From Mobula hypostoma (lineage: Eukaryota): a DNA stretch of 64,000 nucleotides. A model generated the notes under the pieces. That model saw only the letters and a program-made list of their open reading frames with translations. It was not told where the DNA came from and did not search any database. Position numbers and translations under genes: made by a program. Of the stretch, positions 6,471 to 46,200 are shown piece by piece. The stretch is from assembly GCF_963921235.1 (NCBI RefSeq), contig NC_086108.1, forward strand, positions 80,912,001 to 80,976,000, read 5' to 3'. Every line of letters begins with the position of its first letter. Positions within the stretch are counted from its first letter, which is position 1.

Positions 6471-6569
6471 TAAGTGGGGTTCTCGTCCGCCATTCTGAAC
6501 GCTAAATTTGGGACGGAGTAAATTGATTGGGTCAAAATTCCCGAAAGAAAGAAAAGACAAACAGCAGAA

Positions 6570-8386: not shown

Positions 8387-8560
8387 CACAGACTTGACAA
8401 GGGAACTAGTAGGCTATTGTGCGGAGGAGGAAGTGCTAAGGAAGAAAGGGAGACCAAGTACCCTGCCCACAGATGAGGAATGGGGGGTGTTGCAAAAGAA
8501 TTATGGGGATAAGGTTTTTAACATGGCCCACGAGGTACCCCCCCCGGTGGACATTTTGCG

Positions 8561-9430
8561 GTGCTGGAGGAAACAGCTGGTGGAATCATGAAAGAGGTTT
8601 ACTGGCTGCCCAGGGGGGAGGATGCTATTGATTATGACCGACGCGAACTGAGACGGTCACAGGCTTTTGATATGCTAACAAACCTAGTCGGGGTTAGCGT
8701 GGAAATTAATGAAGCTAGGGTCCCCCCGATAAGAGAGAAAAACCATTTTGAAAAGATGAGTATGGTATCGACCAGATGGGAGAAGGTTATTGTTTTGGCC
8801 AGGTCTGCTGATAAGGTCTCTCCCTTAATCCCTGAACAAAGCGACTCTTTAGGAGAAGTAATTAAACGACTCGCACCCGTGTGTTTGATTGTCCCGAGGC
8901 GATGCAAAGAACTGGGACGTTGGGGGTTGGCTGTTACAATCGGTCAGCCTAGTAAACAACATCCATATAGAATGAGTAATTCAGTGACTAAAGGGCTGAC
9001 GAACACAGTGGTGTGTATTGGCAATTTAATACGGCTGTCTGAAGCCAGTTTGATAGTGAACCTTGAAAAAAATGAATTCGGCCACACGAAGGTCACTTAC
9101 CTGGGAATTGAGGTGACACAGGGGCAGCTGGCAGCGATGCAAGCTACAGTGCAGGCTATCGCTGACCTCCCAACCCCGACAGACAAGAGGGCCCTCAGAA
9201 GGCTCTTGGAGATGGTGGGGTACTGTAGGAAGTTTTGCAATAACTCTGCGGTCACTACCCCTCCCCCTCCTACTAAGCCCTTGCGAGAGAAAACTAAGTC
9301 GGAATGGGACGACCCTTGTTATTGTGGTCCGGGACAAAACCAAATGAGAGGTTACATTGATCGCAATTCATCAGTGTTTTTGGCCACTATGAAGTTTGCT
9401 AAATTGGAGCCTGGTCTAAGGGATTATTAA
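8561..9430 (+). pseudogene. pol: Remnant pol (RT thumb fragment only)
   Basis: LIVNLEKNEFGHTKVTYLG...IADLPTPTDKRALRRLLEMVGYCRKF. No YxDD motif, intact RNase H or integrase core is visible. Confidence 0.75.
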
Positions 9431-9602: not shown

Positions 9603-10461
9603 TGTGACGAGAATACATATAAATTAAGATGTTTGCTGGCCTGGGATAGCACCAGTGGCATCAGCAGTTGGTCTGCCACCTGTCCTCAGGGGACACAATA
9701 AAGGCACACAATGAAGTAGCATTTGGAGGTGTTAATGAAGGAGCCATCAGTCTGGGTATTGTCAAGATCGGCTCCCCCTTTGAACCCTGAACTGTTTGAA
9801 GTGATGGACAGGCGATACCCCAGCAGGGGGATAAAAAGGGGCAGGTTCGCTAAGGCAACACACATGACACCCGAGGTAACGAGACCCTGGAAGCGGTGCG
9901 CCTCTCACAAGTCGGTGGGAAGTACCGGGCCATAAACGCACAGGGTGGAAAGGTACGATCAGTGGGAACCCGGTGTGTGTCCACCCTCGCTTGGGTGCCG
10001 GGTTCACTGCAGAGGATCGACTGCATCTGGAGGAGGGGTCACAGTCGGTGACCTCAGGTGACATCACAAAGGACTCGCCCGAAAGCTGCTTGTGAGCAAT
10101 ATCGCAGGTCTGTGTGTGGAAGCCGTTTTGGAATGATCATTCGTTCTTGTTCTCTCTCCTTCCCCCCCACATTGTCCATCGCCATGGCAACGATTACTGC
10201 GAACTGAACTAAATTGAACTGGACTTTGTGTCACTTTGAAATTGGTCATTTACCCCTAGACAACGATAGAGCTTGATTGATCCTGTTATCTTAATTCTGT
10301 GCACATGTGTTTTTATCATTGCTGAACTGTTGCATTTATTATCCTTTCAATTACTGTGTTGCTTGTTTCTTTAATAAAACTTTCTTAGTTCTAGTAATCC
10401 AGACTCCAACTGAGTGATCCATTTCTGCTGGTTTGGCAACTCAGTTACGGGGTACGTAACA
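9603..10461 (+). repeat. 3' LTR
   Basis: Near-identical copy of 5610-6470, preceded by a polypurine tract. Confidence 0.95.
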
Positions 10462-23226: not shown

Positions 23227-26200
23227 ACATAGAAAATAGGTGGAGTAGGCCATTCGGCCCTTCGAGCCTGCACTGCCATTCAGAATGACCATGGCTGATC
23301 ATCCAACTCAGAACCCTGTACCTGCCTTCACTCCATACCCCCCGATCCCTTTAGCCACAAGGGCCATATCTAACTCCTCTCAAATATAGCCAATGAACTG
23401 GCCTCAACTGTTTCCTGTGGCAGAGAATTCCACAGATTCACCACTCCCTGTGTGAAGTTTTTCCTACTCTCAGTCCTAAAAGGCTTCCCCTTTATCCTCA
23501 AACTGTGACCCCTCGTTCTGGACTTCCCCAACATCAGGAACAATCTTCCTGCATCTAGCCTGTCCAATCCCTTTAGGATTTTATACGTTTCAGTAAGATC
23601 CCCCGTCAATCTTCTAAATGCCAACGAGTATAAACCTAGTTGATCCACTCTTTCGTTATATGAAAGTCCTGCCAACCCAGGAATCAATCTGGTGAACCTT
23701 CCTTGTACTCCATGGCAAGAATGTCTTTCCTCAGATTAGGGGACCAAAACTGCACACAATACTCCAGATGTGGTCTCACCAAGGCCTTGTACAACTGCAG
23801 TAGTACCTCCCTGCTCCTGTACTCAAATCCTCTTGCTATGAATGCCAGCATACCATTCGCCTTTTTCACCGCCTGCCCACTTTCAATGACCAGTGTATGA
23901 CACCCAGGTCCCATTGCACCTCCTCTTTTCCTAATCGGCCACCATTCAGATAATAATCTGTTTTCCTGTTTTTGCCACCAAAGTGGATAACTTCACATTT
24001 ATCCACATTAAATTGCCTCTGCCATGAATTTGCCCACTCACCTAACCTATTCAAGTCACCCTGCATCCTCCTCACAGCCAACACTGCCATCCAGCTTCAT
24101 GTTATCTGCAAACTTGGAGATGCTGTATTTAATTCCATCTAACTCATTAATATATATTGTAAACAACTGGGGTCCCAGCACCGAGCCTTGCGGTACCCCA
24201 CTAGTCACTGCCTGCCATTCTGAATAGGTCCCGTTTATTCCCACTCTTTGCTTCCTGTCTGCAAACCAATTCTCTATCCACATCAATACCTTACCCCCAA
24301 TACCGTGTGCTTGCACACTAATCTCCTGTGTGGGACTTTGGGTGTCAAAAGCCTTTTGAAAATCCAAATGTACCACATCCACTGGTTCTCCCCCATCCAC
24401 TCTACCAGTTACATCCTCAAAAAACTCTGAGATTCATCAGACATGATTTTCCTTTCACAAATCCATGCTGACTTTGTCCGATGATTTCACCGCTTTCCAA
24501 ATGTGCTGTTATCACATTTTTTTTTATTATTGCCAAGAACTTTATTTACATCTTAAAGCCTGTACTGCAACGTATACCAAGCATCCGTGAACAAGCTCGA
24601 GGGTATCAAGTTCAAAAAGGTGGGTTTATATTTGATTTATTTTCCTGCAAGCCAGGTATATGTTCCAGAGACCCGATGAATTTTAATTCTAATACCCCCA
24701 TCCCACAAATACAAGTTATTCCTGTTAAATATTGTCAGTAGTTAGAAATATTGAGCTTTTGAACTACCAAAACCAGAATACACAATATCCTTAAAAAGGC
24801 CAACACAGCATATTATCAATGAACCTCAATTCTTATCTATTTCATGTCAAAAAGGCTTTAAGCCCATTCCACCAAACTCAAATGCAAACCCACCTATTGC
24901 CCACATTTCCTCATCCCAATACCCATCTATATTTAAAATACCAAGCATATTAACAAAAAGCCTACAGCAATACAAAATAAAAACACATAGGCCATTTGAG
25001 ATTCCAATTTTACTGTCTGAAATCACTTAAAAAAACAAAAATCACAAGACAAAATCGTTCTAGAAGATGGTACTAGAGTAGCTAAACAAATATCAAAATA
25101 GTAACAGCTCAAGAGACTTTTTGTCCAAATTCTCTGCAACTTGTGCATTACATTATGTACATTTTAGGTTACTGAAACATATCATGCACATTCACTAAAT
25201 ATATCCAACAGGAAGTTAAAATAATATTTGAAACAGTAAAATACCAAAAAGACCTTATGTACTAATGCTCATTACAACTGATACAATCTGCAAAAAAATG
25301 AGGCAATAAGTGGAATGGCTAAAGACTACTGGATATTTTCAGGTCTGTATTTAGTATCTACGGCGTTTATTTGCACCAAACTCTCCAACTTGATTTCCAT
25401 GGGGAAACCCAGCCGGGATCCCAACCATCGGTCCACCCATCTTATTTGCTTGACCATCCATATTTCCAGGAACAAATCAATCATTAGGCAATGCAATGTT
25501 GCTTTCTGGCATTTGATTTCCCAGGCTTCCAGGTGGACCTTGAGGTGGTGGTGCATTAGTATTCACGGTGGGCCTGTTCATTCCCATAAGTGGCCGAGGA
25601 ATTTGGCTTGCAGAGGCTGCTTTCAAATTTGAGTAATCAGCTCTGTTATCACATCTTTGATAACAGACTCTAGCATTTTCCCCACCACCGATGTCAGGCT
25701 AAGCGGTCTATAATTCCCTGGTTTCTCTCTCCCTCCTTTTTTAAAAAGCGGGGTTACATTAGCCACCCTCCAATCCTCAACTAGTCCAGAATCTACAAAG
25801 TTTTGCAAAATTATCACTAATGCATCCACTATTTCTTGGGCTACTTCCTTAAGCACTCTGACATGCAGACCATCTGCCCCTGGGGATTTATCCGCCTTTA
25901 ATCCTTACTAATTTACCTAACACCAATTCCCTACTAACATGTATTTCCCTCAGTTCCTCCATCTCACTAGACCCTCTGTCCCTTATTTCCAGAAGAATAT
26001 TAATGTCCTCCTTAGCGAAGACAGAACCAAAGTAGTTATTCAAATCCCTGCCCCCTGCTCCAATCCCTCAGCCATGCATTTATCCTCCACCTCTTTGCAT
26101 TCCTACTCTGTCGTGTAGCACAGGCAGTAATCCCGAGATTACTACCTTTGCAGTCCTTTTTCTCAACTCCCTATATTCTCCTTTCAGGACCTCTTCCCTT

Positions 26201-26687: not shown

Positions 26688-27989
26688 GAAGTCAACAGGC
26701 TGTAGCAGCTAGCTACAACCTGGCGTCAAGCACAGGGTCCTCCATAATTTCAGAGGTCTGTACAGCTTTATGGAAAGCATTACAGCCAGAGATCCTTCCC
26801 TGCCCTTCAGTCGCCCAATGGGAAGCTACTGCAGTGTAGGAGGAAATGCGATGCTACCAAGCGGACCAATCACAGTTGTGCGGTCTGTGTCACCGCAACG
26901 CATAGTTACATTTTTGGGGAGCTGCGTGTCAGGCTACAGCGTAGATTTGACGCACAAGTATAAATTGGCCTTAAGGCCCAATCCACCTACACAAACCACG
27001 TTGCCTTTCTGAGTTCAACTCATGGGCACTGGACTCCTCAGCATAGAGGGTATTTTCCAAAGCTAACACCTCAAAAAGGCAGTATCATTTATTACAAACC
27101 CCCATTACCCAGGACACACACAGTTCTTAATGCTATCAAGATACAGGAGTGTAAAGCTGTTTTAGGAACAGCTTCTTCCCATCCCCTACCAGGTTTATTA
27201 AAGTACAATAAACCCATCATGTACACTACAATATACAGGCATGTATACATTTCTTGTTGCAATTTATTTTATCTTCTAAGGTCCATTCCTTTCCTACTTG
27301 TTTCCTTCAGTCCTTTAGCACTCCCCCTAACACCCCCAACTTCTTACATCATCCGCACCTTATTCTTGCCCCTTCCTTTCCAGTTCTGATTAAGAGCCTT
27401 AGTCTGAAACTTCAGCATTTAACCTTTTGCTGTCTATAACATCCTCATCCATATTAAAACTGATCCACATAGCACACCACCACCCTCAAGTCTGGACAAT
27501 ATAACCAAGGCCCATTTATCATGAGTAAACCATCAGAATACAGTGCAACGTTCACCCTTGAAAAACGAAGGCGTACTCAGTGTGAATGTTAAATTCCTTA
27601 AGGGTCAAAGAGCAGTGCAAGTAAAGGTAATAAACGATAATAAGGCAGAGAGATACAATTTCTTGATTTGGGTGCAGGTATACCAGACCAGGTGAAAATG
27701 CAAATCAGCCACAATAGCAAATAATAGACTTGAATCAAGATGCTCACACCTGCTTAACATTTGTACATGTTCAGAAATGCAATGGTCAGAATGTTATTCC
27801 AGAAAAACGTTTATTACGCCATTTTCAAAATAGATCAGAACTAATGCTTCTTCAGTTTGACTTCCTCCTACTGGTTATAGCACTGCTGAGCCAAGTTAAT
27901 TCTTCATGTGCAAACTGGAAGGAAAAAAACACATTACATTACCTATCAATACAACAGAAATTCTCTAACCAAATTACACCCTGCAACTA

Positions 27990-28071
27990 TTTCCAGATTT
28001 TCAGTGTACAAAAACAGCATCATTATTTCAGAAGCAGAACTGGTTAATGTTGTCATCATTAGATCAGGAAA
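27990..28071 (-). ncRNA. SNORD38: C/D box snoRNA U38, 3' copy
   Basis: C box ATGATGA (28053-28059), guide CCAGTTCTGCT antisense to 28S AGCAGAACTGG, D' CTGA, C' ATGATGC, D CTGA (28001-28004), terminal stem TTTCCTGAT/ATCTGGAAA. About 85 nt upstream of the last acceptor. Confidence 0.9.
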
Positions 28072-28452
28072 CAGTCTATCAGCACCCATCATTACAGAAC
28101 TACATTAATTACAAATACCCACACGTAACATAGCTGCTACTTGCCATGGATACTGTTCAGACCTCCTCCTCGCAAATGAGAAAATCTGAGGAAAGGAGCA
28201 CCTTTTCCAGCCCTGAAGGTCCCAGCCCGAAACGTAGACTGTTCACTCTTTCCCACAGGTGCTCCCTGGCCTGCTGAGTTCCTCCAGCATTGTGTGTTGC
28301 TTTAGACCTCCAACTTGCCTTTACTGGCTACTTAAATAAGAAGGTCTTCAAATCTGAAATACGATCCAAAGTCAAAAATAAGATACAACAGTAAGCAAAT
28401 AGGTCAAGTACTGCTGACAGGATATTCCCTGCCCATTTATTAATCTATACCA

Positions 28453-28533
28453 AGTCTTCTTCAGAACACTATAGATATCACCACAGATACTCAGAAGCAG
28501 AACTGACAAAAAGGTTTTCATCATGAGAAGACT
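28453..28533 (-). ncRNA. SNORD38: C/D box snoRNA U38, 5' copy
   Basis: C box ATGATGA (28518-28524), guide TCAGTTCTGCT, D' CTGA, C' GTGGTGA, D CTGA (28461-28464), and a perfect 8-bp terminal stem AGTCTTCT/AGAAGACT. Confidence 0.9.
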
Positions 28534-29379
28534 GGATCATTTGTAATGCAGAGTATCAACAGAAGTCAAAGAACCGAGAGACTCCATTCCCAGTTCTAGT
28601 TACTCTCTCACCCCTTCTCTTCTCACCTGCCTGCCAATTCCCTCTGGTTCCCCTCCTTATCTTTTGTCCACCGTTCTGTTTTAGATTCCTTCTTCAGTCT
28701 TTTACTTGTCAGCTTTTAACTTCATCTGCTCACCTGTCAGCTTATACTTGTTCCTGATTCCCAATATTATTCTTAATTTTTCCCTGCTCCCTATCCAGCC
28801 CTGAAGCAGCTCAGCCCAAAATGTTGATTTGTTTATTCCCTTCCATAGATGCTGCCTGACTTGCACTTCTCTAGCATTTTGTGTACTGTTCAAAATTCCC
28901 AATACTTGCAGAATCTTCTGTCTTTATAAAGCTGATACAGGCTCTCAGCCCCAAGGATCAGCTGGACATAGCATTCTTCAAGCAGAATGTTTTAGTTTTG
29001 CCTAAGATTCCGGCAATGATTTGTATATCTGATGCAGTTGAAAATGATCCTCAGTACTCTGGTTTTGATTTTAACAGTCAGGACAACCTCATCTTCAGAG
29101 TCCATTTATAAAAGGTGTTTTGGAATTTTGTCGACAGAAACGTTTAGAAAGGAAAATAAGTTTTAGCAATACCAGGTATACAACCACAGGGCACTCCGAC
29201 AATTCATAAAATAAGCACGTGGTGTGCAAGCAGGTTATCCAAACGAGTCTTAGTTATCCTACGGTAGTTTTTTTTAAATCAAAGCTTTCTACAGATCTGT
29301 TCTTCCCCACCTGCTATGCCATCCCATGTCCAAAGCCCTTGAGTTCTTTCACACTAGCAGATTACTTCTCAAAAATAAA

Positions 29380-29472
29380 GCAGTCTCAATTGTCGAAACT
29401 AATTATCAAAGAAACTCAGATCAGGCAACATTTGAAGTCCTACAAGCAGTTTTATGTTTTCATCACGATTGC
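29380..29472 (-). ncRNA. Diverged or decayed SNORD46-like C/D snoRNA
   Basis: C box GTGATGA (29460-29466). The 5' part GTGATGAAAACATAAAACTGCTTGTAGG resembles the RPS8 copy ATGATGACAATATGACTTTCTTGATAGG. The 3' part GTTTCTTTGATAATTA resembles GTTTCTTTGTCATAGTTA with the guide broken. Imperfect stem GCAATC/GACTGC. Confidence 0.55.
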
Positions 29473-29836
29473 AGCATTTACAATCTCCTACATCTGCACA
29501 AAGTTGTATTTTCTAAAGGAAATTACGAGAAGGTTAGCCATGCGAGTCGTTCTAGAAAATAGTTAAGGATAAAAAAAAATAGCTAAATATGAAACGCTAT
29601 AAGCAACCTGCAGTTATTTCGTTATTAAAATAAGACGCTTAAAGCAAAAGGGTCTCTAGTAAAATAAAATCAATACAATGACATACTTCACGATTGCAAG
29701 CTGGAGCCACAACTCATCCCGATTCTAACATCCGAACCGGTTTAACGCATCGCCATCTTTGGACACTAAAAGAAAAAAAAAGAAATTAATGTGAGCCCCC
29801 GGATGGAAACGCAATCAAGGAGAACACGTTGATTAA

Positions 29837-29913
29837 CGAGTGCTCAGTTCTCCAAGGTAAATCTCCACAATGTGAATTCGGAAACCGCAGAAAATTGTCC
29901 TCACAGACACTCG
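29837..29913 (-). ncRNA. SNORD55: C/D box snoRNA U55 (U39), second copy
   Basis: Variant C box GTGAGGA (29898-29904), guide TTACCTTGGAGA antisense to 28S TCTCCAAGGTGA with one G-U pair, D box CTGA (29844-29847), stem CGAGTG/CACTCG. About 77 nt upstream of the exon 2 acceptor. Confidence 0.85.
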
Positions 29914-30071
29914 CCTAGTTACTGTCCCACCGCCTGCACTTTCCCCCTCCCGATCCCGGGCTCATTTCGAGTCTGCCGCCGCGGCCTTCATTACCCTACC
30001 TCGCACATGGCCTCCGAGCCCGGGACAACAGCAGCCAAAACAAACCCATCACACACGGACACGGGTCTACC

Positions 30072-30195
30072 GGGGAAAAGGGCGAACAGCACCCTGACCC
30101 TCTCTATATATAGACTGGCGTGACGCAATGACGTTATCGAAGGCGACGAACACGTAACTATGCGATTGGCTGGAGGCGTGGTCTGTATATTGGTT
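30072..30195 (-). promoter_or_regulatory. Pol II promoter of the non-coding host: TOP start, TATA, CRE-like and CCAAT boxes
   Basis: CCCTTTTCCCC at 30082-30072, TATATATA at 30112-30105 (about -31), tandem TGACG sites at 30121-30133, and two CCAAT boxes (30165-30169, 30189-30193) in a CpG-rich patch. A YY1-like AAGATGGCG lies downstream at 29751-29759. Confidence 0.8.
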
Positions 30196-30559
30196 GTCCT
30201 TGGACGCGCAGCGATGTTTGTGAGGAGTCCCGGAGCGGGGTGTCGGCCTGAAACAGCGACCGTTTTTTCATTTCCATATACTGCCTGATCTGTTGACTTC
30301 CTCCAGCATTTTGTGTGTGTGTTGCTTTGGATTCCAGCTTCTGCAGACCTTCTTATGTGTCTGTAATGTACTAGCTTGAAAGAGCAGCGAAGGACCTTGG
30401 ACGTTAAGCATAGTGTTCCTCATTTCCCAGATGACACTTGGCCAGATGTTTCTGTTCTGCTTTTATTCTTTGGAAAGGGATACTATATTCGGCTCATATG
30501 CCTACGTTTCAATTAATCGTACTCCTAAGCTGTTTTTTTTTTCTACACAGAACAATACT

Positions 30560-32280
30560 GTATAGCCTCCCATTCCATGCCTAGACTGCATTTCAGAAAA
30601 TCTGATCACTTGGCTGTCTTACCTGCATACAGGCAGAGGCTAAAGAGCAAAGCTCCAGAGACAAGCATAACAAAGAGGTGGTGGAGGGAGGCAGGGGAGC
30701 GGCTACGCGATTTCTTCAAGACTGTGCAGTGGGCTGTGTTCAAGGACTCAGCAGACGATCTGAATGAATACACCACAGTGGTCATGGACCTTTTACAAAC
30801 AGATGAGTGTGTCCTCACAAAATTATCCAGAGTCTTCCCCAACCAGAAGCCCTGGAGATCCGCAATCTGCTGAGGGCCAGATCAGGAGCCCTCAGGTCTG
30901 GTGACCAAATAAGATACGAGAGGTCTAGTTATAATCTCTGGAAAGCGATCTCACATGTGAAGCGGCAATTCTGGACCAAACTTGAATCATTGAAGAATGC
31001 GCGACAGCTGTGGTAGGACTTGAGTGCTATCACCTCCTACGAAGTGAAATCAGGCGAAATGGTTTCATTCCCCGATGAGCTCAATTCCTTTTTCGCTCAC
31101 TTTGACCAGAGGCACCTTCACGAACTACACAGCCTTTGATGACCTGTAATTTCGGTCTCTGAGCATCCTTCAGGGGGATGTACCCACAGAAAGCATCCAG
31201 CCCAGATGGAGTACCAGGTCAAGTACTAAAGACCAGCTGGAGTGTCCACTGTTATCTGTAACTTCTCGCTTCAGCGGTTTGAAGTACCCACCTTCTTCAA
31301 GCAGACTTTAATTATTCCGGTGCCTAAGAAGAATGTGGTAACCTGCCTAAATGATTATCATTCAGTAGCACTTACATCCACAGTGATGAAGTGTTAGAGA
31401 GGTTTGTGATGAAACATATCACCACCTACATGAGAAGTGACTTGGATATGCTCCAATTTGCCTACTGTCACAACAGATGCTACTTCATTGGCTCTTCACT
31501 CAATCCTGGGACATCTAGACAGCAAAAATGCAAACATCAGGGTGTTCTTTATCGACAACTTGGCAATCAATACTATCATCTCCTCAGAACTTATCAATAA
31601 ACTTCAAGACCTTGGCCTCAATGCTTCCTTGTGCAGCTGGATCCTCGATTTCCTCACTTGTAGACCACTGTTAGTTTGGATTGATAAAAACATCTCTTCC
31701 ACAATTTCCATCAGCACAGGTGCACCACAAGGCTGTGTATTTAGCCCCCTGCATTATTCGCTTTACACTGCTGACTGTGAGGCTAAACACAGCTCCAATG
31801 CCATATTTAAGTTTGCTGATGACACCGCTGTTGTTGCCCGAATCCAAGGAGGTGACATATCAGCATATAGGAGGGAGATTGAAAATCTGCTGGAGTGTTG
31901 CAACAGCAATTTCTCAGTGTCCACAAGACCAAGAAAAGGAGCTAATTATTGATTTTAGGAGGAGGAAACTGGAATCCATGAGCCTGTCCGCATTAGGGGA
32001 TCAGAGGTGGAGAGGGTCAGCGCCTTTGAATTTATTATTTCAGAGGATCTGTCCTGGGCCCAGCATGTAAATATCATTATGAAGAAAACACAGTAGCACC
32101 TGTACTTCTTTAGAAGTTTGCAAATATTTGGCATGATATCTAAAACTTTGACAAACTTCTGTAAATGTGTGGTGGAGAGTAGATTGACTGGTTGCATCAT
32201 GGCCTGGTATGGAAACACCAATGTCCTTGAATAGAAAATCTTACAAAAAGCAGTGGGTTCTGCTCAGCCCATCATCGTCA
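30560..32280 (+). mobile_element. Degenerate Rex1-type LINE
   Basis: KSDHLAV, FPNQKPW, LQFAY, STGAPQGCVFSPLHYSLYT and FKFADDTAVV. Confidence 0.85.
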
Positions 32281-33346
32281 CATGTCCCGGTCCAAAGGCA
32301 GCATCACGATCCCTTACCCGTGCACGGACTTCCGCAATAAACCATGACTTCTGATTTGCCCTCACCTGGATATCCTCCCTACACTTCTCTATGTAGCTGG
32401 TCACAGAATCCACATATTCCTCGATGTTAATGTGGTTGCCGTAGATAGCAGCTTCCCTGAACATTCTCCAGTTCGTTTTTTCAAAGCAGTTCTGCATTGC
32501 TGAGATTGCCCCCTCAGGCCAGGTTTTCACCACCTTTAGAACTGGTTTGGCCTGTTTTGATCAGTGGTTTATATGGTGGAATTTGCATTACAGATAAGTG
32601 ATCAGAGTCCAATGTGGGGTTGAGGGACAGCTGTATATGCATGCACCTGGTATGGGCCAGCCAGTGGTGGTGTGGCATCAGCACTGAACTTCTAGGTGGA
32701 TGGTCCCAAGTTCGAACCTAACTGGGTCCCAACCTGAGGAGCAGCGGTATCTGCATGGAAGAAAGGCCTAGCAACATACTTCTGTATCTTGCCACAAAAA
32801 CCCTATAGACAACTATATGAGTCAATGATGACTCGACAACAACATGTTAGTATAAATCAGGTCTGGTGTATTTTCACAAAGAGAGAATCTGCAAATCTGC
32901 GCTGGAAATCCAGAATGGGTCAGGCAGCATCTCTATAAAGGGTCTCAATCCCTCCACGGATGCTGCCTGACATGTGGAGTCCTCCAATATCAAATGCATT
33001 GCGCTACATCCTTTGACAGGTGGGAAGAGGCGATCTGAAAGGAGGGGCAGAGTGAGTATTTTTTTAAAGGAACGCTTTGTGCTGATCCAGAATAACCACT
33101 ATCAAGATGGGCATTCATTAGGCATAAGCACTTTTAGAAAAATATATATACAGGGCCTTAGGCACAACAAGTAGAGAATGGGAAAGTACTGATTTCATGA
33201 GTTTGTGTGGACTCAATGAGCAAAATGAGTCCCCCTTTAAGTGTTACCCCTGCTAACAGCCACATGACTTAAGTGGTGAGAAGGCTTCTTTTCATAAGCA
33301 ATATACTTCCAGGGTCGGTATGATTCGAGCAACCAAACAGGAACGT

Positions 33347-33986
33347 TGTGATGTTCCAATTAAAGAAACCTCGTTTTGAATGATTGGTGTATAAATACTG
33401 CCCATACTCAGTTATTGGTCAGCAAGAAATTACAGATTGTACGCCACATAAAATTATAAAAGTATATTTACTAATTTCAGCTCTATCTGTTATTAGGGGA
33501 AAAAAGAAATGTCCTTTTACAGTTAAACCAGTCCAATGCACACATAACCATTGAAGCACATATTGGAGTATTCAGGGATGTATCTCTTTACTTAAGCGCT
33601 GGACCTACAGTCTGTGTGAAAACACTCGCCACATTTTCGAACTCCCCTCAAAGACCATCTCAAGCTCTCTCTCATATGAATATTGCCCTTCCTCCTTGGA
33701 GCTATTCATCTGCACTTCTTGCAACGGGGGAACTCTCCTTTCCACAGTAGTCTGTGGCAGCTTCCCTTCTATCCCACTTCGCAGCTCCTGCCAAAAATGC
33801 CCAAACTGGGCTACTTTCTCCAGATCCCACCATGCTGATTGGCTAACACCACATTCCTAATTTGAACAGCAGGGCTTCTTTGCCGAAACAAAAACAAATT
33901 CTTCCAGCAGAACACACTGCTTTTGCAGAAAACTGCTAAAATGAGACCTACAGCAAAGCAGTAGAAATCTTAACCTGGGCATTACA
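33347..33986. repeat. Possible solo LTR
   Basis: Begins TGTGATGTTC and ends GGGCATTACA, an imperfect TG...CA inverted terminus. No TSD confirmed. Confidence 0.3.
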
Positions 33987-36900
33987 TAAGTTATTATTGA
34001 AAACACAACTCATTGGTTAAGAATCACCTGCAATTCTGTGAACTATTTCAGGCCCTTTGAAGGTGGACATGGAGAGCTGACCATAATGCCAAGTCTAAAG
34101 GAATCCTGCACACGGTCCGTACCCCACTATTCTATGCCTGCTCACATCAATGTCTCAATATCACTCCAACGTCGCTACCCACCACCTCCCTGGCAGCATG
34201 TTACAGCCACATACCAAAGGAAATGCCTTCCACAACTCCTTTAAACTTCCCCACCCCTCACCTTAGAATCAAGCCGTCCAGTATTTGATCTTTCCACCCT
34301 GGTTAAAAGACCCAATTTATCCTATATATGCCCTTCAAAATGGAATGTACTGCTACAGGTTGCCTCTCAGCCACTGATGCTCCAGCAAAAACAAATCCAA
34401 ATTTCCCAGCTTCTCCATGTTACTAATATGCTCTAATTCAGGCAATATTCTTTGTGTACATGGAATGCACCATCTCCAAAACCTCTACATCTTATATAGC
34501 ATGGCAACCAGAAATGCATATGCATATATTCCAATTGTTGCCTAATCAAACTTTTATATTGCTGTTTCAGAAAAGTTAATGTTTTCTGACATTTGGCTCT
34601 CTTCCAGGCCGGGTAGGATCTGTACAAATGGGGTGGTTTACACCTGAACGGGAAGGAGGGGGGGCACACATATCCTCGTGGGAAGGTTTTCTGCTCAAGA
34701 GTGCTTCATAAGAGTTGCAGGGGGTGGGAACTAAAGTGGCAGGACAGCAAGTGGAGCGGCTATGGTGAAAGTATATGCTAAGCCTACAAGCTAAGATGGA
34801 AACTGAAAGGTTGAGCATGGCGAGACCTGGGAATACAGGTCCATAAATCATTGACAGTAACATCACAGGTGACTAAGATAGTAAAGAGATCATTTAGTAC
34901 ATTGGCCATCATAAATCAGGGCAATGAGTATAGGAGTTGGAATGTCATGGTGAAGTTGTACAAAGTTGTGAAAAGGCAAAATTTAGTCTATAATGTGTAG
35001 CTTTGGTGAGCTAACTACAGGAAACACATCAGTAATCTTGAAAGAGTACAGGGAAAATTTACAAGTTATAGGAAAAAGTTGAACAGATTGGGACTTTATT
35101 CCCTGGAATGGAGATTTACAAAGGCACGCACAATTATGAATGGTATAGGTAGGATGAATGAATGTCCCTTTCCCCTCACGTTGGATGAGACAAGAACTAG
35201 AGGTGCAACCACGAGGAATTCTGCAGATGCTGGAAATTCAAGCAACACACATCAAAGTTGCTGGTGAATGCAGCAGGCCAGGCAGCATCTCTAGGAAGAG
35301 GTACAGTCAACATTTCCGGCCGAGACCCTTTTAGATGTGGGTACAATAGTAAAATTTAAGATAACTTTCGACAGGTACATGAAAGGTGTGTGAATGGCTA
35401 GGGTCTGTCTGGATGCAGGTAGATGGCACTGGGAAGATCACAATGGCATGAACTAGATGGGCCAGAGTCTGTAACTATGCTGTGGTGTTTTGACTCTATA
35501 TTAGTATATTAACATATTTAACACATTAAATTACAAATTACAATAATTTATATTTTATTTCTTTTACCAAAGTTGGAAGTAGGAACATTTAAAAAGGTAA
35601 GTCTCAAAATCTGATGGCTGCGGTAAGACAAGAGAAGGCTGAGAAAAGGCTGGTGAGTTTTCCTTCTCAACATTACTGAGCGGCAGTGAAATTTTCCTCA
35701 CATACAATGTGAGAGATCCGGGACTCTACACCTGTGGGAAGGATGCCTAGTTCCACATTGACTACATTAATGAACTGGAGCTGGAGGTGAACATGGTTGG
35801 AAACACAGCTTTATTGATCCACTTTGAGGTTGTCACTCTTAAGGTGCAGATGACAATAAGGTTTGGTGACCACCCCCCCAGGAGTAGCAAGGGAAACAGA
35901 CAGGGCAGGACCATGCTAAAGCCCTTCTGTTCAGTAGCATATACCACATTGGGGAATGCTGTGGGAGTAATGAGCTTTCTGGGCAAAGTAACAGTAGACA
36001 GGTTGGTGGCACTGAAACTGGCTCTGAGGTTCAGTAGCAAGGGAAAAGACAGACAGGGCATTGTGCAAAGGATCTATGCTGTGCTGTATCTCAATGAATA
36101 ATTACCCTAGCACCGGGCTGTGAGGTCTTCACCTCTTCTCTGTATATCATCTCGTTGTTGGTGATGAGCCCTACCACTGTTGTCACCAGCGAAATTGACA
36201 AGGTGATTACTTGGGCGTTTGCCTGTGCAGTCATGTATGGGCAGTGGGCTCAGCACACAGCTCTGTGAGGGGCACCCCTGTTGAGGATAATGGGGATTGA
36301 GGAGCGGCTGTACATCCCGACTAATTGAGGTCTGTTTGTTAGTAAGTCCAACACCCAGTCACACACTGGGAATTTGTTCCCCAAGGACTGTGGGACAAAT
36401 GTTGAATGTTAAACTGGAATCCAGAAACAGCTGTGTCCTTGTTTTCTAGGAATGTCCGGGTCAGGTGCACGACATATGTTAAAGCAACTGTTTCAAAATG
36501 GTTTCAGATATCCTAGTGCACATTAGTACCAATGCTGCAAGTAAAAGAGTGATGAGTTCCTCTATGGTGAATATAGGGAGTTAAGAAATTAAACAGCAGC
36601 CATAACCTCTGGATTACTTGCAGCACCATATGCTCACGAACAAGGGAAAACAGAAAGTTAGAGCTGATGAATGTGTGGCTGAGGAGCCGATGCAGGGTTT
36701 CAAGATGACTGTAACAGTGGTCACAGCTTACCAGGATGCTACCTGTATTTGAGGGTATTAGTTTTAAGTAATGAGGTTGGACACAAATAATGAATGTTTT
36801 TAATCGGCAAGTGCCACTGTCAAATGTAGTAGTGTGCAGGGAGAAAGGATTTAATTTGGCATACTTGGCACATCATGGAACAGAGTTGGCCATGTGCTGT

Positions 36901-37694
36901 CATAATCTATGCTCTCTCATTCATTGGGGTTCTCTCAGCTCCTCTACCATCAGTTAAGTATGCCACATTATCCTTTAATAAACTCATGGGCATTAGTTTT
37001 TTTTTAAACTGCAAGTAGCTTTTGCCCCATTCTTGATTCAGATCAATCAATAGGCTACCAGGACCAAAACTGTTAGGCTGTTCACTGATTATAATTTCTA
37101 GCACTCCCACATCTGGTGTTACAATGAGGGTTTCTCCTTCTGTAGTAGTGTACTTCTCTTAATATACTTCAGAGCATATTCTATCAGGCAAGCTTAAAAT
37201 TTTAGTCTTTCCTACTTCAAATTCTACAGAAAATACAACATAAAAGCCCCTCAACCTTATTTCAATCCCCCCTATAACCTTTGATATGCCCCCTTTTAAT
37301 TAAGAACCTATCAAGCTTAACTTTAAATATATGTAAATGACTTGGCCTCTACAGTCATCCATGGCAACAAATCCCAGATTCATCATCCTCTGGCTAAAGA
37401 AATCCCTCCATCTGTTCTAAAGGGACATGCTTGTATTCTGAGACTATGTCTTTTGATCCTAGACCTCCCCCAACCTCTAAGAAAACACCCTCTCCACATT
37501 GTTGATCAAGGCCTTTCAATATTTACTAAGTTTTAATGACTTCAACACGTACTGTATAAGAGCCATTAAATGCTCCTCATACATTAGCTCTTTCATTTCT
37601 AGGACAATTCTCATGAACTTTCTCCATACCCTCTCAATGCCAACAGATCCTTTTTTAGAGAAGTGGTTCAAAACCGCTTGCTCTCATCCCAAAC

Positions 37695-38430
37695 GCAAAA
37701 ATCTGCAGATGCTGGAAATCCAAGCAACACACCCAAAAAATGCTGGAATAACTCAGCAGGCCAGGCAGCATCGATGGAAGAGTACATTTGGCTTTTTTGG
37801 GCTGAGACCCTTCAGCAGGGCTGGAGAAAAAAGCCAACAAGACTTAAAAGGTGGGGGCAGGGGTAATTACTGGAAGTTTGAGAAACTAATGTTTATGCCA
37901 TCAAGATGGAGGCTACCCAGATGGAATACAAGGTGATGTTCCTCCAACCAGAGTGTGGCCACATCACATTGGAGGCCACAGGTATTTTTCAGAATGGGAA
38001 GTGGAATTAAAATGGGTGGCCACTAGGAGACCCTTTTTCAGGCAGATGGAGAGTAGGTGCTCAGTGAAGCTATCTCCTAATCTACATCGGGTATCACCAA
38101 GAGGGCACACTGGACACATTATATGACCCCAATAGACTCACAAGTGAAGCATCAACTGAAAGGACTGTTTGGGGCCCTGAATGGTAGTGAGGGAGGTGTA
38201 GCATTTGTTCCACTTACTAAGTTAAGTGTCAGGAGGGAGGTCAGTGTGGAGGGATGAAAAGACAAGGAAGTTGCATAGGGGGTGATCCCTGTGGAGAGCA
38301 GACCCCCTTCAAAATCTACTCTGCAGCTTTTAAACTCCAGTCCTGCTTAAGGGTCTCAGCCTGACACAGGGATTGTACTCTTCTTTCGATGCAGCCCGGC
38401 CTGCTGAGCTCCTCCAACATCTTGTGTGTT
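37695..38430 (-). mobile_element. Penelope-like element fragment with inverted terminal segments, within a CR1 remnant
   Basis: Reverse complement of the HLVFHLGSL-type endonuclease terminus, flanked by GATGCTGGAAATCC...GAGACCCTT and its inverse. Confidence 0.55.
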
Positions 38431-39721
38431 GTTCACTCTCATCCCTTGTTTGCTTTGTGCGTGTGTGTCCTATGCACATGCCTTTTAAAATGCATCAGCC
38501 TCTACATGTCCTCTGGCTGCTTGTTCCAGGTAACAACTCTACAGAAAAAGTACCTTTAAATTTCCCGTTCCTCTAGTTTTATGCTTCATTTTTAGAAATT
38601 TCCAAGCCCCTCTTAAATTCCAGTGAAGATTAACCCAGACCTATTCATAACCTCACCATTATAGCCCACTGTTCCAGGCAAATTCCAGTGTTTTTTCCCC
38701 CCTAAATTCCCTCCATTACTACCACAGATGTGCAATAAAATTACAGTCACTAAACCTAGATAGGTATAATTCTGTTAAGCAAGCCACCCAATGCATTCTC
38801 CAGGAAGGTAGACATTTTTAAAAAATTCAGCTTCCCTCGTCTCTACTTTGAATAAACAGTAAATTGACTAATTCAAGTCCATTTAAAACAAATTTCCTAA
38901 AAATGTTGAATTACAAGCAGCATCCAAGTTTTCTTTTTGTTGTACTTAACTCAGAAGCCAGTAGTTTAGATTTAAAAAGCCAATAAACAAGGAAGCTTAA
39001 ACCAGAGAAAATCCAGAAATCCCAGCCACACACACAAAATGCTGGAGGAACTCAGCAGGCCAAGCAGCATCTAGCAAAAGTGCAGTCAACTTTTCCGGCT
39101 GTCAGCTCTCTTTTCTCCAGTCCTGCCGTAGGGTTTCAGCCTCTAACGTCGACTGTAGTCTTTTCCTGGATGCTGCCTGGCCTGCTGGTCCCTCCAGCAT
39201 TTTGTGAAGGAAGCTTATGCCACTTGGTTTAATGAGCATTTCAAATCTTTGTGTTTGTGAACTTCCCACCTCCAATGTATATTTGCAGACAATGCTGTAA
39301 ACAGTTACTAAATGGGAAAAAATGTTTCCTGCCTTCGAAAAGGTGAAGCTACAAATAAAGCTTTTCTTTCTGCAAACAGGAGTTTGATCTTGCACAAGAA
39401 TGAGTCTTGAAATGCTACAGTAAAAGCACCAAGTCACTAGATTGTGCATGAGCCACTGTTTTAGTAAATTGATATTCCATGAAAACATCCCTGTCCTTCC
39501 ATTGTGCTAGCAGCCTCAGTAACCTGTAATTTTACAGAACCCCAATAAACCGTACAAAATCTGCCATTGGACATTTCCTCAACCAATCATGGCAAGCTTA
39601 AAAAAGCTGTTCAGTTGCAAATAAATCTTGACCTGGGAAACACTCTACTGTGTTATCTTATGCATTCAGTATTAGCTTCTAGTGGGATCAACTGGAAATT
39701 GCAAAATTGGTTGAAAAATGT

Positions 39722-39727
39722 TTTATT
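39722..39727 (-). terminator. RPS8: RPS8 polyadenylation signal
   Basis: AATAAA 25 nt after the stop codon. Confidence 0.85.
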
Positions 39728-39752
39728 AATACATTTTCTACAGGAATAAAGC

Positions 39753-39932
<180 letters not shown>

Positions 39933-40590
39933 TCAGAGTCATTCCCCACCTATGCTGCCTTGCACTCCAAGCAGTATCCCTGCATGCACTACTTTCAAAC
40001 AGATCTCGTCAACTGTTACACCCTGATCATTAGCTGATATAACCATGCAAATGTTTAAATGTCAATTCTCCAAGATAAACATAGACAACAGCCACAGAAA
40101 ATGGAAACCAAAGTTGTTTCCTCCTCATTTTGATCATTAACTAAGGGTTGACCATCAAAAAAAATAGCAAATATTTTCATGCCCTAGAGTAGAAGATGAA
40201 ACACCCATCACAGCATCAACATTGTATGGAATACAGAAAAGTCACCAAGATCAATATTAGGGGGAAAAAAGTTTATTAGCAGCAAAAGCCCCTCTACCTT
40301 CACTGCCAATGCTTTATCCTCAAATTCTCAGGTGTCATTGGCATCAACCTCCAATAAATGATGCATATCATGGACTAAGCACCGACCAAAGTGCACAGTA
40401 GCTAAGCAGAACCCCGGAACCTCCAATCATGCTTTCAAACTGCACCCAATGCTCAAGAATTGAGTAGCAGTACACCAAAGCCTTTATATACACAAAGCCA
40501 TCTATTCAATTTAAAACAGAAGGATATCTAGCATGGATATAGATGTGCAAAACTTGTAATCTTCTTGATGGAAGAATAAAAGTTTCATTA

Positions 40591-40731
<141 letters not shown>

Positions 40732-41619
40732 TCAACAAAACACTCATCTTACAAGGCAATAACAATAGCAGAAAAGGTTACACTGCTTTGCACCAATTTA
40801 CACAGCACTTTAAAAGCTTATGCTGCATTGTTATATTTTCTCTTCCACTATCTTAATGCACTGTTGTAATGAAACGATGTTTCTATGGCCCGCAAACATT
40901 TTTCCACTGTACAGCAACAATATATCAACTTACTAATAAGAAAAATGGTTGTACAGTATTAAATGATTTTTCTTAAACCTATATTCCACCACCCCCAAGA
41001 AAAACACTGGGATTTCCAAAGTATATCAAAGCTGCTTAATGCAATCACTTTTAATCCTGGGAAAACAATTTACGCTGAGGGGAGTTGGGACATTTTATAT
41101 TCTTTGAAGGACACATCCAGTCTATTGAATTATGTCCAACTAAAGTACACTTTGAAAATCATTCCCAAGTAGCTCCTTTCCTCACCAATGGAAACCTGCC
41201 CATTGCCTCTCCAGCCAAACTGGACAATTCTCATGTAACAAACTCACAAGCTGCACTCAGCACTCATATGATCAAAACAGACGATCAAACTACACGTAAA
41301 GCTGCACATTTTCAAATATGTTTAATCCAGGTAAACAGATTTGACATTTGCCTAGATTTCAGCAATCTTTGCAGAAACTGGTCTATTATTTCTCTAGTTT
41401 AACAGCCTTAAATAATTCACGGAATTCAAAACAGGTTGACTATCATCTTCAGCAGTAAACCTACATTCTGCATTTTACGTCAAAAGTTGACAGTTGATTG
41501 CAAATGGAATGTACAATATCCATTAGCCAGGAATAGGACAGTATACAAATAGCATACCGTCACATTTCAGCCACACTGTAGGAGACACATCCATTCTCTA
41601 TGTGCATTGATTTTGCTGT

Positions 41620-44611: not shown

Positions 44612-44724
44612 GCAGTGTGGTCAGTGTAACTATGACAAAGAAACATAGGTGGATGCAAAAATGACCAGAACGGTCACTAACAACCCACCTATCAAGAAAG
44701 TCATATTGTCATCATTCACACTGC
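44612..44724 (-). ncRNA. SNORD46: C/D box snoRNA U46 (U40) in RPS8 intron 2
   Basis: C box ATGATGA (44709-44715), guide GTCATAGTTAC antisense to 28S GTAACTATGAC, D box CTGA (44621-44624), and an 8-bp stem GCAGTGTG/CACACTGC. Confidence 0.92.
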
Positions 44725-44997: not shown

Positions 44998-45077
44998 CAG
45001 CAGGTACTCAGTTCTCCAAGGTGATTCTCTACAGGAAACATTCAGTGCTGTACGAGTTTCATCATTTATACCTGCTG
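44998..45077 (-). ncRNA. SNORD55: C/D box snoRNA U55 (U39) in RPS8 intron 1
   Basis: C box ATGATGA (45059-45065), guide TCACCTTGGAGA, D box CTGA (45008-45011), and a 9-bp stem CAGCAGGTA/TACCTGCTG. About 70 nt upstream of the acceptor. Confidence 0.93.
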
Positions 45078-45449: not shown

Positions 45450-46200
45450 TGGGTTACCATTACACGAGTTATTGGGACAGTCGATGATAACCGGCCCTCA
45501 TCTCCGCAACAGTGAGGGGGGACCAAGCCGGACCCCGCAAACCTCACCCCCCCCCCACATACACACACTGATGGGGTCCCGGTTCTGTGCCCCCCACACT
45601 GACGGGGTCCCAGCCGTGCCCTGTCCATCCCAGTGCTCAGGGCGCGGACTAAGCACCGCCATGACGGCCAGCCGGGCCCACCCGACGTCTAACACCAAAG
45701 TATCAGCAGAGCCAGCGCGAGTTGTGCCCCCGGACAAAGCTGACCCTCATCTCCAAGCTTCCTTGGACGCGGCCTGTGGCAGAGCGAAGGTCCCGAACCG
45801 CCACAAGCGGCGGATTGACTCGGATTGCATTGGGACAAACCCCGCAGCTCACGTACCCATTCTCAGGCTTCGGGCGGAAAGAGGAACCGCAACGGCTGCT
45901 GGGTCACAAGTCGCTTCAAAGTCTCGCGTGGATTCGCTGGGCACCGCGTGACGTAGGAGGAAGAGGATTGTGTTTGTGGCGGGACGTTCGGGGATAATCG
46001 CACTGTTCTGGCCGCGGCCGGGGTTAATCGCACCGAGTTGGCTGCGGCCTAGCGGACGGTCGGGGACAATCACACGATGCTGGCCGCGTCTACCTGCACA
46101 TCAGTGCCATACTTTATTCCAGGCCTGGAGCTTCCTTCTTTCCGAGTTATCCCAGTGGGACGGGCAGCCGGGCGATGTTTTTTCCCCCCTCATGTGATCC
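45450..46200 (-). promoter_or_regulatory. RPS8: RPS8 CpG-island promoter with TCT/5'TOP start near 45883
   Basis: High CpG density, TTCCTCTTTCC at 45886-45876, and no canonical TATA box. Confidence 0.85.
45857..45860 (-). CDS. RPS8: RPS8 exon 1 coding part (ATG G)
   Basis: CTCTTTCCGCCCGAAGCCTGAGAATGG|gtacgt. The exon sum 4+107+100+176+130+110 = 627 nt gives 208 aa plus stop. Confidence 0.93.

Follow-up and report, generated by a model that had tools for sequence, protein, structure and literature searches.

GAS5/SNHG1-type host genes are 5'TOP genes, and the spliced RNAs of GAS5 and SNHG1 are removed by nonsense-mediated decay. To our knowledge, the exons of non-coding snoRNA hosts keep no trace of ancestry, and their origin is therefore usually argued from common features, such as the TOP start. 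In human, the host of the SNORD55, SNORD46, SNORD38, SNORD38 run is RPS8. The tabulated human coordinates follow this order (PMC6984369, supplement), chicken RPS8 is described as carrying U55 in intron 1, U46 in introns 2–3 and U38 in introns 4–5 (PMC2653536), and zebrafish rps8a is listed as host of SNORD55, SNORD46 and SNORD38 (PMC7668251, supplement). The same families in the same order were found in the window analysed here (64,000 nt of Mobula hypostoma contig NC_086108.1, positions 80,912,001 to 80,976,000), but the set is divided over two neighbours: RPS8 keeps SNORD55 and SNORD46, and a second gene, hereafter the twin, has SNORD55 and two SNORD38 copies. The twin is a GAS5/SNHG1-type host that adjoins its probable parent gene. 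With GAS5/SNHG1 (UHG)-type hosts it shares short exons, the lack of a long open reading frame (ORF), a TOP-type start (predicted in the twin) and one C/D snoRNA per intron, 70–110 nt from the acceptor (GAS5-like host features are given in PMC2653536). Unlike them, it carries a subset of the RPS8 snoRNAs in RPS8 order, with a probable parent holding the complementary set 10 kb away; the literature searched yielded no description of such a parent for GAS5 or SNHG1, nor of the present host. Very probably, the twin is an old tandem copy of RPS8 that was kept as a snoRNA carrier.

The features of the locus are collected in the table.

Table. Features of the twin, of RPS8 and of the interval between them (positions in the window)
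Feature	Position	Strand	Remarks
Predicted promoter	30083..30195	-	sequence only; inside CpG island
Predicted exon 1	30000..30082	-	opens with TOP tract; donor gag|GTAGGG at 29999
SNORD55/U39, box C/D, intron 1	29837..29913	-	Rfam RF00157, 37.4 bits (gathering score 35)
Predicted exon 2 (79 nt)	29687..29765	-	pure pyrimidine acceptor; donor gaa|GTATGT
Decayed SINE fragment	29436..29517	-	76% identity over 82 nt to SINE copy L168 elsewhere in the genome
SNORD38, RPS8 intron-4 type	28458..28529	-	snR61 (RF00476), 48.6 bits (cut-off 45)
Penultimate exon	28145..28353	-	two donors from contigs; 5' end predicted from sequence
SNORD38, RPS8 intron-5 type, last intron	27998..28064	-	RF00476, 33.1 bits, under cut-off 45
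Terminal exon	27790..27914	-	AATAAA at 27815; acceptor at 27914 in contigs
SNORA35, H/ACA	39320..39449	-	76.2 bits; between RPS8 and twin
RPS8, intact, 6 exons, 208 aa	39710..45885	-	probable parent gene
SNORD46, RPS8 intron 2	44614..44722	-	27 bits, under cut-off
SNORD55, RPS8 intron 1	45001..45074	-	25.7 bits, under cut-off

The twin lies on the same strand as RPS8 with 9,645 nt between the RPS8 AATAAA and its start, in agreement with the distance of about 10 kb downstream given in an earlier sequence-only reading. The CpG-rich promoter described there is borne out by CpG observed/expected values of 0.87–1.18 at 29251-30500 (vs 0.37 window-wide), which mark a CpG island. The minus strand likewise has the promoter words that it named (CCAAT, TGACG and TATA): two CCAAT boxes (30193 and 30169), two CGTCA half-sites, which read TGACG on the opposite strand (30133 and 30125), and TATATA at 30112, 30 nt upstream of the TOP C at 30082. 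There the minus strand opens the claimed TOP-type pyrimidine tract, CCCTTTTCCCC, and the start is predicted from this motif; a TATA box followed by a pyrimidine tract occurs at two places in the window when both strands are counted.

The twin contains three intact snoRNAs of the box C/D class, all with guides to 28S rRNA. The SNORD55 copy has a variant box C (GUGAGGA), folds with a 6-bp terminal stem, places box D 78 nt ahead of the acceptor and pairs over 13 nt with the 28S rRNA of this genome, through a guide in front of box D. The first SNORD38 (spacer AAACCTTTTTGT, 7-bp terminal stem) pairs with 28S over 14 nt including two G-U pairs, and the second (spacer CAACATTAAC, box D 86 nt ahead of the acceptor) over 12 nt without mismatch. 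All three guides, with 12–14 nt of pairing to the animal's own 28S, stand beside a CUGA box, and both SNORD38 guides, which precede box D', pair with the site equivalent to human A1858. RF00212 (SNORD38) and RF00476 (snR61) belong to one clan (CL00051) with a common target site, as given in PMC3511168; with RF00212 the two copies scored 32.1 and 26.9, under its cut-off of 44. The assignment of SNORD55 and two SNORD38 to the introns is thus upheld by Rfam scores and 28S pairing, the second SNORD38 scoring under the cut-off. In the genome search with RF00212 (best 64 of 430,172 candidates scored), the first SNORD38 ranked highest. The 3.48 Gb searched contained three occurrences of the pattern of box C, guide and box D', two of them in the twin and the third on another contig (C22); the reversed-pattern control had 0 matches. 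Rfam recognised no snoRNA in the C22 match (L009) at E values up to 1, and the match was treated as chance. The twin holds the sole two convincing SNORD38 copies found in the genome. The SNORD55 guide pattern gave 34 matches genome-wide vs 34 in its control and was uninformative, and an Rfam scan of 20 kb on either side of the window found no snoRNA.

The fourth element of the sequence-only reading, a SNORD46-like relic at about 29467-29416, was not sustained and lies in a decayed SINE fragment. The element had no Rfam match (SNORD46, RF00218) and no rRNA guide of at least 9 nt beside a D-like box, and it resembled the SNORD46 of RPS8 no more closely than shuffles did (36/500 as good); together with the SINE match, these tests rule out a SNORD46 identity. 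One contig of run X2 over this region (record 13, 29281-29538, depth 4.1) showed 0 differences in 258 nt, compared with 2.4% (68/2777) in the other seven X2 pieces listed (P ~0.002, uncorrected for the choice of record 13 out of eight pieces).

Transcript evidence was taken from the contigs of four (X1–X4) of eight listed runs, presumed to be RNA, which do not give start or strand. The last intron is transcribed and spliced in contigs from two studies and two organisms (A and B). The sequence-only reading had called short exons with GT-AG sites; this applies to the last intron in organism B, where another donor is used (28201-27915), and does not apply in organism A, where the intron is GC-AG (28144-27915, donor at 28144). 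X3 record 16 joins 28145 to 27914, and X2 and X4 join 28202 to 27914, the shorter side of the joint being 28 letters. The acceptor at 27914, which mapped transcripts had been expected to show, is used in these contigs, and the terminal exon has the AATAAA ascribed to it. A longer transcript form extends about 870 nt beyond this signal, past 27000 to about 26945. Towards the 5' end, clear contig depth over the bin 29766-30226 was seen in X3 only, and predicted exon 2 has indirect depth support in X3 and X4 and none in X1 and X2. The second SNORD38 therefore lies inside an intron seen to be spliced out, while the introns of SNORD55 and of the first SNORD38 are predicted. The penultimate exon carries an inserted SINE (about 28203-28302). 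A candidate exon of 41 nt (29351-29311) was rejected, as low-depth contigs run across it; another candidate, at 29551-29527, is very short (25 nt). No processed copies of the twin RNA, which would reveal its exons, were found in the genome search. The longest ORF measures 21–33 aa in four short splice models and 52 aa in the extended model (5' exons predicted), and none of five open frames gave a Pfam match over the cut-off. The spliced RNA of the twin, modelled in part with predicted 5' exons, is without a protein-coding frame.

That the locus is a decaying pseudogene whose snoRNA-like sequences have gone out of use is very improbable. Such decay would agree with two snoRNA scores out of three lying close to or below the Rfam cut-offs, with the variant box C of SNORD55 and with the SINEs inserted in the gene. 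However, guides, boxes and terminal stems are intact in surroundings that have lost any RPS8 likeness, the CpG island has been kept, the locus is spliced in two organisms and the genome offered no other convincing SNORD38.

RPS8 itself is free of SNORD38. The guide was absent from its coding strand, introns 4 and 5 included, even at three mismatches, and no clear relic was found in these two introns (best 5/200, in a chosen 200-nt stretch). The SNORD55 of RPS8 pairs with 28S over 12 nt and is further from the Rfam model than the copy in the twin; its SNORD46 pairs over 11 nt. About 280 nt behind the RPS8 AATAAA lies SNORA35, the only match in the genome search (best candidates scored), with a pocket that fits 18S U531, as listed for Xenopus. 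A possible relic of this snoRNA in the twin was considered and rejected: the best local match (38.5, 28568-28503) overlaps SNORD38, and unrelated tiles reach 37.5 and 36.0 among 51. A snoRNA behind a poly(A) signal needs a host intron, and contigs of low depth are present over several stretches between 35.7 and 39.5 kb; both would be accounted for if the twin were mainly a non-coding 3' extension of RPS8, with exon 6 skipped or read through and SNORA35 thereby intronic. We regard this as quite improbable, since the twin has a CpG island, a TATA box and a TOP start (predicted) of its own, and no RPS8-to-twin joint or loose end appeared among the joints listed (15 of 522). Such an extension is compatible with an origin by duplication.

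Descent from RPS8 by tandem duplication, as proposed by the sequence-only reading, is supported by the loss of SNORD38 from RPS8, by spacer matching, by splicing and by a faint relic of exon 6. An outgroup was available in a vertebrate RPS8 on a metagenome contig (L099, the one of 117 metagenome loci scanned that holds RPS8), which carries SNORD38 in introns 4 and 5 and has no SNORA35 within the 485 nt between exon 6 and the contig end. In the spacer between box C and guide, the first SNORD38 of the twin scored 9 against the intron-4 copy of L099 and -4 against that of intron 5, and the second scored 7 against intron 5 and -2 against intron 4; 0/102 background spacers matched either pairing as well, in a comparison that rests on spacers of 10–12 nt and one outgroup contig. 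This pattern is not repeated in the 3' halves, where the first copy is nearer the L099 intron-5 copy. In zebrafish rps8a, where the last C/D snoRNA is SNORD38, the spacer likewise ends in TTAAC in a by-eye comparison. SNORD55 occupies intron 1 of both genes, 78 nt (twin) and 72 nt (RPS8) from the acceptor, and the intron rank is that of RPS8, with SNORD55 first, the intron-4-type SNORD38 next, the intron-5-type SNORD38 last and SNORD46 absent from the twin. The RPS8 order claimed by the sequence-only reading thus holds for SNORD55, SNORD38 and SNORD38; since the SNORD46 marker, one of four, was wrong, the order argument as first written is weaker than claimed.

The statement that the exons show no recognisable RPS8 coding similarity stands at the protein level (tblastn best E 1.2; phase-matched peptide test 450/2000), while in DNA the last exon is faintly like exon 6. 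In global alignments without acceptor and AATAAA, 0–2/3000 dinucleotide shuffles, 1–5/3000 block shuffles and 0/3438 window tiles were as good. A local alignment of the body alone was not significant (503/3000), and a motif-fixed local test gave 50/3000. The terminal exon also reached z 2.8 against RPS8 exon 4 and 2.4 against exon 2; with the L099 exon 6, z was 0.2. These mixed, test-dependent alignments point with moderate strength to a faint exon-6 relic. No likeness to RPS8 was found for intron 1 outside the snoRNA, for exons 1 and 2 or for the penultimate exon. Outside SNORD55, nothing emerged from comparisons of the 3' introns or from long colinear alignments of introns, several free-end-gap alignments having collapsed to trivial overlaps.

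An unrelated TOP transcript beside RPS8 might instead have captured SNORD55 and a block of two SNORD38 introns by local copying, and would then be a real host and no duplicate of the whole gene. It is described as common for snoRNAs to move from one intron or gene to another (PMC6984369), the twin has no SNORD46, and its exons 1–2, its introns outside the snoRNAs and its promoter lack RPS8 likeness (for the promoter, 348/500 shuffles were as good); the TATA box and the CCAAT boxes of the twin promoter are missing from RPS8. We nevertheless consider capture unlikely, as it needs at least two copying events, each keeping RPS8 order and intron rank (first, penultimate and last), and in addition a coincidental resemblance between the last exon and exon 6.

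In our assessment the twin is probably a separate, spliced, protein-less 5'TOP-type gene with intronic snoRNA products that arose from a tandem duplication of the whole of RPS8. Pol II would start at the TOP C (30082), and the introns released by splicing would be trimmed to SNORD55 and the two SNORD38. With only short ORFs, located ahead of exon junctions, the spliced RNA would probably be degraded through nonsense-mediated decay. After the duplication, one copy would have lost its reading frame and SNORD46, and the other both SNORD38. Through this complementary loss, methylation of the 28S A equivalent to human A1858 would have come to depend on the non-coding copy, a proposed need that may explain why its snoRNAs, promoter and splice sites have been maintained despite exon decay and SINE insertion.

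A similar cluster is tabulated for Xenopus tropicalis, so the twin is possibly not particular to this lineage. The supplementary table of PMC6984369 lists 11 snoRNAs on one strand over 13.6 kb (chr4:72,605,972-72,619,610), in the order 46, 46, 38, SNORA35, 55, 38, 38, 38, 55, 38, SNORA35. In these entries, gaps of 188–208 nt leave little room for RPS8 exons of 100–176 nt, and 11 snoRNAs exceed the five RPS8 introns, which together imply a second host with SNORD55 and SNORD38 and without SNORD46; the table names neither hosts nor rps8 coordinates, and this two-gene reading is inferred from the tabulated order and spacing. As tabulated, the second block differs from the twin in having more copies and a second SNORA35 at its end, which the twin lacks. 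On these entries, frogs may likewise have a second host, whether through common descent or through convergence. More tentatively, and with some doubt on our part, a single tandem duplication of RPS8 might have preceded the split between cartilaginous and bony fishes, with an unnamed non-coding host (SNORD55 and SNORD38, no SNORD46) surviving in cartilaginous fishes and frogs and lost in teleosts and amniotes, and with the SNORA35 behind the RPS8 poly(A) signal being part of the ancestral unit. Fossil lncRNAs of protein-coding genes (PMC5577775) resemble the twin in being lncRNAs from coding genes that lost their frame; the twin keeps a defined intronic cargo and has its probable parent adjacent, and the terms snoRNA, SNHG, host gene and ribosomal have no occurrence in the main text of that paper.

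As a very probable copy of RPS8, the twin illustrates one way for a ribosomal protein gene to give rise to a non-coding snoRNA host. Because the probable parent is adjacent, the snoRNA set is divided and the copies are traceable to parental introns, a route from duplication through frame loss to intron-driven retention can be tested by aligning the locus among sharks, rays, chimaeras, coelacanth, lungfish and amphibians. The locus further offers a clear example of duplicate retention through the partition of intronic cargo rather than of protein function. If the Xenopus cluster represents this very gene, it would be a conserved vertebrate gene so far unnamed; if it is a different gene, the same conversion would have occurred twice at one locus. 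Should a single old duplication prove true, a vertebrate SNHG would have a ribosomal-protein parent, and the order of its losses and its later disappearance would be directly readable.

The second gene, which lies downstream of RPS8 on the minus strand, is predicted to start 9,645 nt beyond the RPS8 AATAAA, inside its own CpG island. All the words of the CpG-rich promoter described in the sequence-only reading (CCAAT, TGACG, TATA and a TOP start near 30081) were recovered: CCAAT boxes and CGTCA half-sites, two of each, plus TATATA at 30112 and a TOP tract at 30082, which on sequence alone mark a putative promoter. The same reading listed the intronic snoRNAs as SNORD55, a SNORD46-like relic and two copies of SNORD38. 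SNORD55 and both SNORD38 copies are matched by Rfam and have guides that pair with 28S rRNA over 13, 14 and 12 nt, respectively, their box D standing 78, 107 and 86 nt from an acceptor. The relic (29467-29416) proved to be a SINE. A box C and CUGA are present, but neither an rRNA guide nor an Rfam match, and there is no likeness to genuine SNORD46 (36 of 500 shuffles were equally good). The element falls in an 82-nt stretch that shares 76% identity with a SINE copy on contig C18. The interval 29281-29538, which takes in this remnant with its chance-looking C and D boxes, has no differences from an organism B contig over 258 nt, while other pieces differ by ~2.4%; either a captured orphan RNA or the noise of a single low-depth contig could account for this. 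Open reading frames in five splice models reach at most 33 aa (52 aa in an extended form).

Features on the minus strand of the window and the evidence for each
Feature	Position	Strand	Evidence or remark
RPS8	45885-39710	minus	six exons, GT-AG introns, frame of 208 aa
SNORA35	39320-39449	minus	76.2 bits; between RPS8 and the second gene; sole match in genome search
SNORD55, second gene	29837-29913	minus	Rfam
snR61/SNORD38 clan, second gene, first copy	28458-28529	minus	Rfam
snR61/SNORD38 clan, second gene, second copy	27998-28064	minus	Rfam

In the whole genome, a pattern of box C, SNORD38 guide and D' matched three times (control, 0), and two of these matches are the copies in the second gene; the third, on contig C22, was rejected as a SNORD38, with no Rfam support. 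The two copies rank first and third of four matches to RF00212, all below the cut-off (64 candidates scored). RPS8 itself harbors SNORD55 in intron 1 and SNORD46 in intron 2, each below its Rfam cut-off and each with a guide pairing perfectly over 11-12 nt with this genome's own 28S rRNA. The SNORD38 guide word is absent from RPS8, occurring on the minus strand of the window only at 28505 and 28042, and no match was found on the RPS8 coding strand at up to three mismatches. The SNORD55 of the second gene fits the Rfam model better than the RPS8 copy at 45001-45074 does (37.4 vs 25.7 bits) and appears by eye to be nearer to zebrafish SNORD55; RPS8 may lose its copy next.

A PF01201 profile search of the 3.48-Gb genome, in which the window is G000:C50:80912001-80976000, returned nine matches. 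Three are exons of the window's RPS8, four belong to two processed RPS8 pseudogenes, and two are short and without DNA likeness to the RPS8 mRNA at E 1e-5. One pseudogene (G000:C21:155149949-155150504; 95% identical to the mRNA) spans the TOP tract to the 3' UTR; the other, 90% identical, is at C50:14925534-14925820. A 30-nt unit is repeated twice in the RPS8 promoter (45989-46049), and contig C50 starts with an rDNA array (2274-140997; nine motif copies, unit ~19.4 kb). Elsewhere in the window, a minus-strand frame at 25345-25640, with one internal stop and a LINE fragment beside it, ends in GEFGANKRRRY and a stop, resembling the C-terminus of NONO/PSPC1; the frame is probably a piece of a processed pseudogene. 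Near-identical direct repeats (5774-6145 and 9765-10136) around gag- and pol-like frames (6522-9427) form an LTR retroelement.

Eight runs, guessed to be RNA, cover the stretch (two studies, two organism labels), and the contigs of four (X1-X4) were compared with 27000-40800; such contigs are informative on joints, not on start, strand or level. Because each of the four shows the RPS8 exon 5-6 joint, including X4 despite its automatic flag as probable DNA, all contain spliced RNA. The acceptor foreseen at 27914 is used in spliced contigs. In X3 (organism A), record 16 covers 28291-28145 and resumes directly at 27914, giving a GC-AG last intron (28144-27915; donor ATG/GCAAGT) with the second SNORD38 inside. 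Record 1 of X1 is listed for 27000-27914 only, and its depth of 117.4 recurs at 28160-28197, which implies the same joint. In X2 and X4 (organism B), 28202 is joined to 27914 from a GT donor 57 nt upstream, by one contig each with a shorter side of 28 letters; each run also shows 27887-28231 unspliced, in a contig that reaches 28-30 nt into the exon on either side. Another strong GC donor, aag/GCAAGT, is present at 28318. The terminal exon extends beyond 27000 in all four runs, and the 5' junctions are absent among the 15 of 522 joints listed. Unexplained depth in the bin 29305-29765 corresponds to a 79-nt piece with a depth of 292 in X4, where the joint contig has 275.9, and of 69 in X3; X1 and X2 have no such excess. 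This lends indirect support to predicted exon 2 in two of the four runs. The second gene is very probably a real, spliced, non-coding snoRNA host.

Three lines of evidence point to its origin by duplication of RPS8: complementary loss, positional match and terminal-exon likeness. RPS8 retains SNORD46 without SNORD38, the second gene SNORD38 without SNORD46, and both have SNORD55 in intron 1. Of the 117 metagenome loci that show the SNORD38 pattern, a single one, L099, includes RPS8 exons 4-6, and both intron 4 and intron 5 hold a SNORD38 there; the gene is from a vertebrate, and its compact introns suggest a bony fish. The spacer from box C to the guide is AAACCTTTTTGT in the first SNORD38 of the second gene vs AAACCTTTTGT in L099 intron 4, and CAACATTAAC in the second vs AACATTAAC in intron 5; none of 102 other spacers matched equally well. 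The zebrafish SNORD38 at chr2:26501347, last of the five C/D snoRNAs listed for rps8a, likewise has a spacer ending in TTAAC. Both SNORD38 types therefore predate this lineage, and they stand in the second gene in the same order as in RPS8. Against the positional match, the 3' halves of the SNORD38 copies sort differently from the spacers.

At two places the terminal exon is like RPS8 exon 6: around the acceptor (TTTCCTTCCAG/TTTGCACAT vs TTTCCTTGCAG/CTTGCATAT in RPS8) and close to the stop codon and poly(A) signal. With both motifs left out, the global alignment was equalled by 0-5 shuffles out of 3000, depending on the kind of shuffle, and by none of 3438 tiles, while local-body and protein tests were not significant; z was 2.8 and 2.4 against RPS8 exons 4 and 2, and 0.2 against L099 exon 6. 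On balance, this likeness gives moderate support to duplication. No likeness to RPS8 was found in the promoter, remaining exons and introns, as expected after an old event but also if an unrelated TOP transcript had picked up SNORD55 and two SNORD38 introns from RPS8 by local copying. Given the complementary loss, spacer match and terminal-exon likeness, the earlier proposal of an old tandem RPS8 duplicate kept as a snoRNA carrier is the likeliest reading, and the gene is probably such a duplicate, kept by partition of the intronic snoRNAs.

SNORA35 lies ~280 nt past the RPS8 poly(A) signal, outside known introns, and one of its pockets fits 18S U531 (tied with a 28S site in the pairing scan), the target given in Xenopus. 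An H/ACA RNA occupies the matching place in Xenopus and probably in zebrafish, where a 133-nt H/ACA snoRNA, Ensembl 'intergenic' and not labelled SNORA35 in the table, comes directly after the rps8a C/D series, and no additional snoRNA is listed in chr2:26,502,000-26,509,999. L099 shows no SNORA35 in the 485 nt that follow exon 6. In X. tropicalis, a supplementary table places SNORD46, 46, 38, SNORA35, SNORD55, 38, 38, 38, 55, 38 and SNORA35 on one strand of chr4:72,605,972-72,619,610 (13.6 kb; PMC6984369), with gaps of 188-208 nt and hosts not named. Eleven snoRNAs at such gaps exceed the room of five introns, which implies a second host with SNORD55 and SNORD38 but without SNORD46. The cluster forms two blocks, each with SNORD38 then SNORA35 at its end, as though the RPS8 unit and its 3' flank had been duplicated in tandem. 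RPS8 retains SNORD55, 46 and 38 in chicken (PMC2653536) and zebrafish (PMC7668251). A single old duplication would need losses in teleosts and amniotes, and two separate duplications would need convergence; the last exon, like this species' RPS8 and unlike that of L099, leans toward the latter.

Non-coding hosts have long been suspected of descent from coding TOP genes. A literature search that covered few subscription papers found no account of a non-coding RPS8 paralogue, and no host traced to a ribosomal protein gene beside it. The list of 1352 vertebrate C/D genes of PMC3349704 may bear on priority; RPS8 was not found in the accessible part of PMC13736004. The second gene probably works like GAS5 or SNHG1; its novelty would lie in a probable parent and a history that can both be seen.
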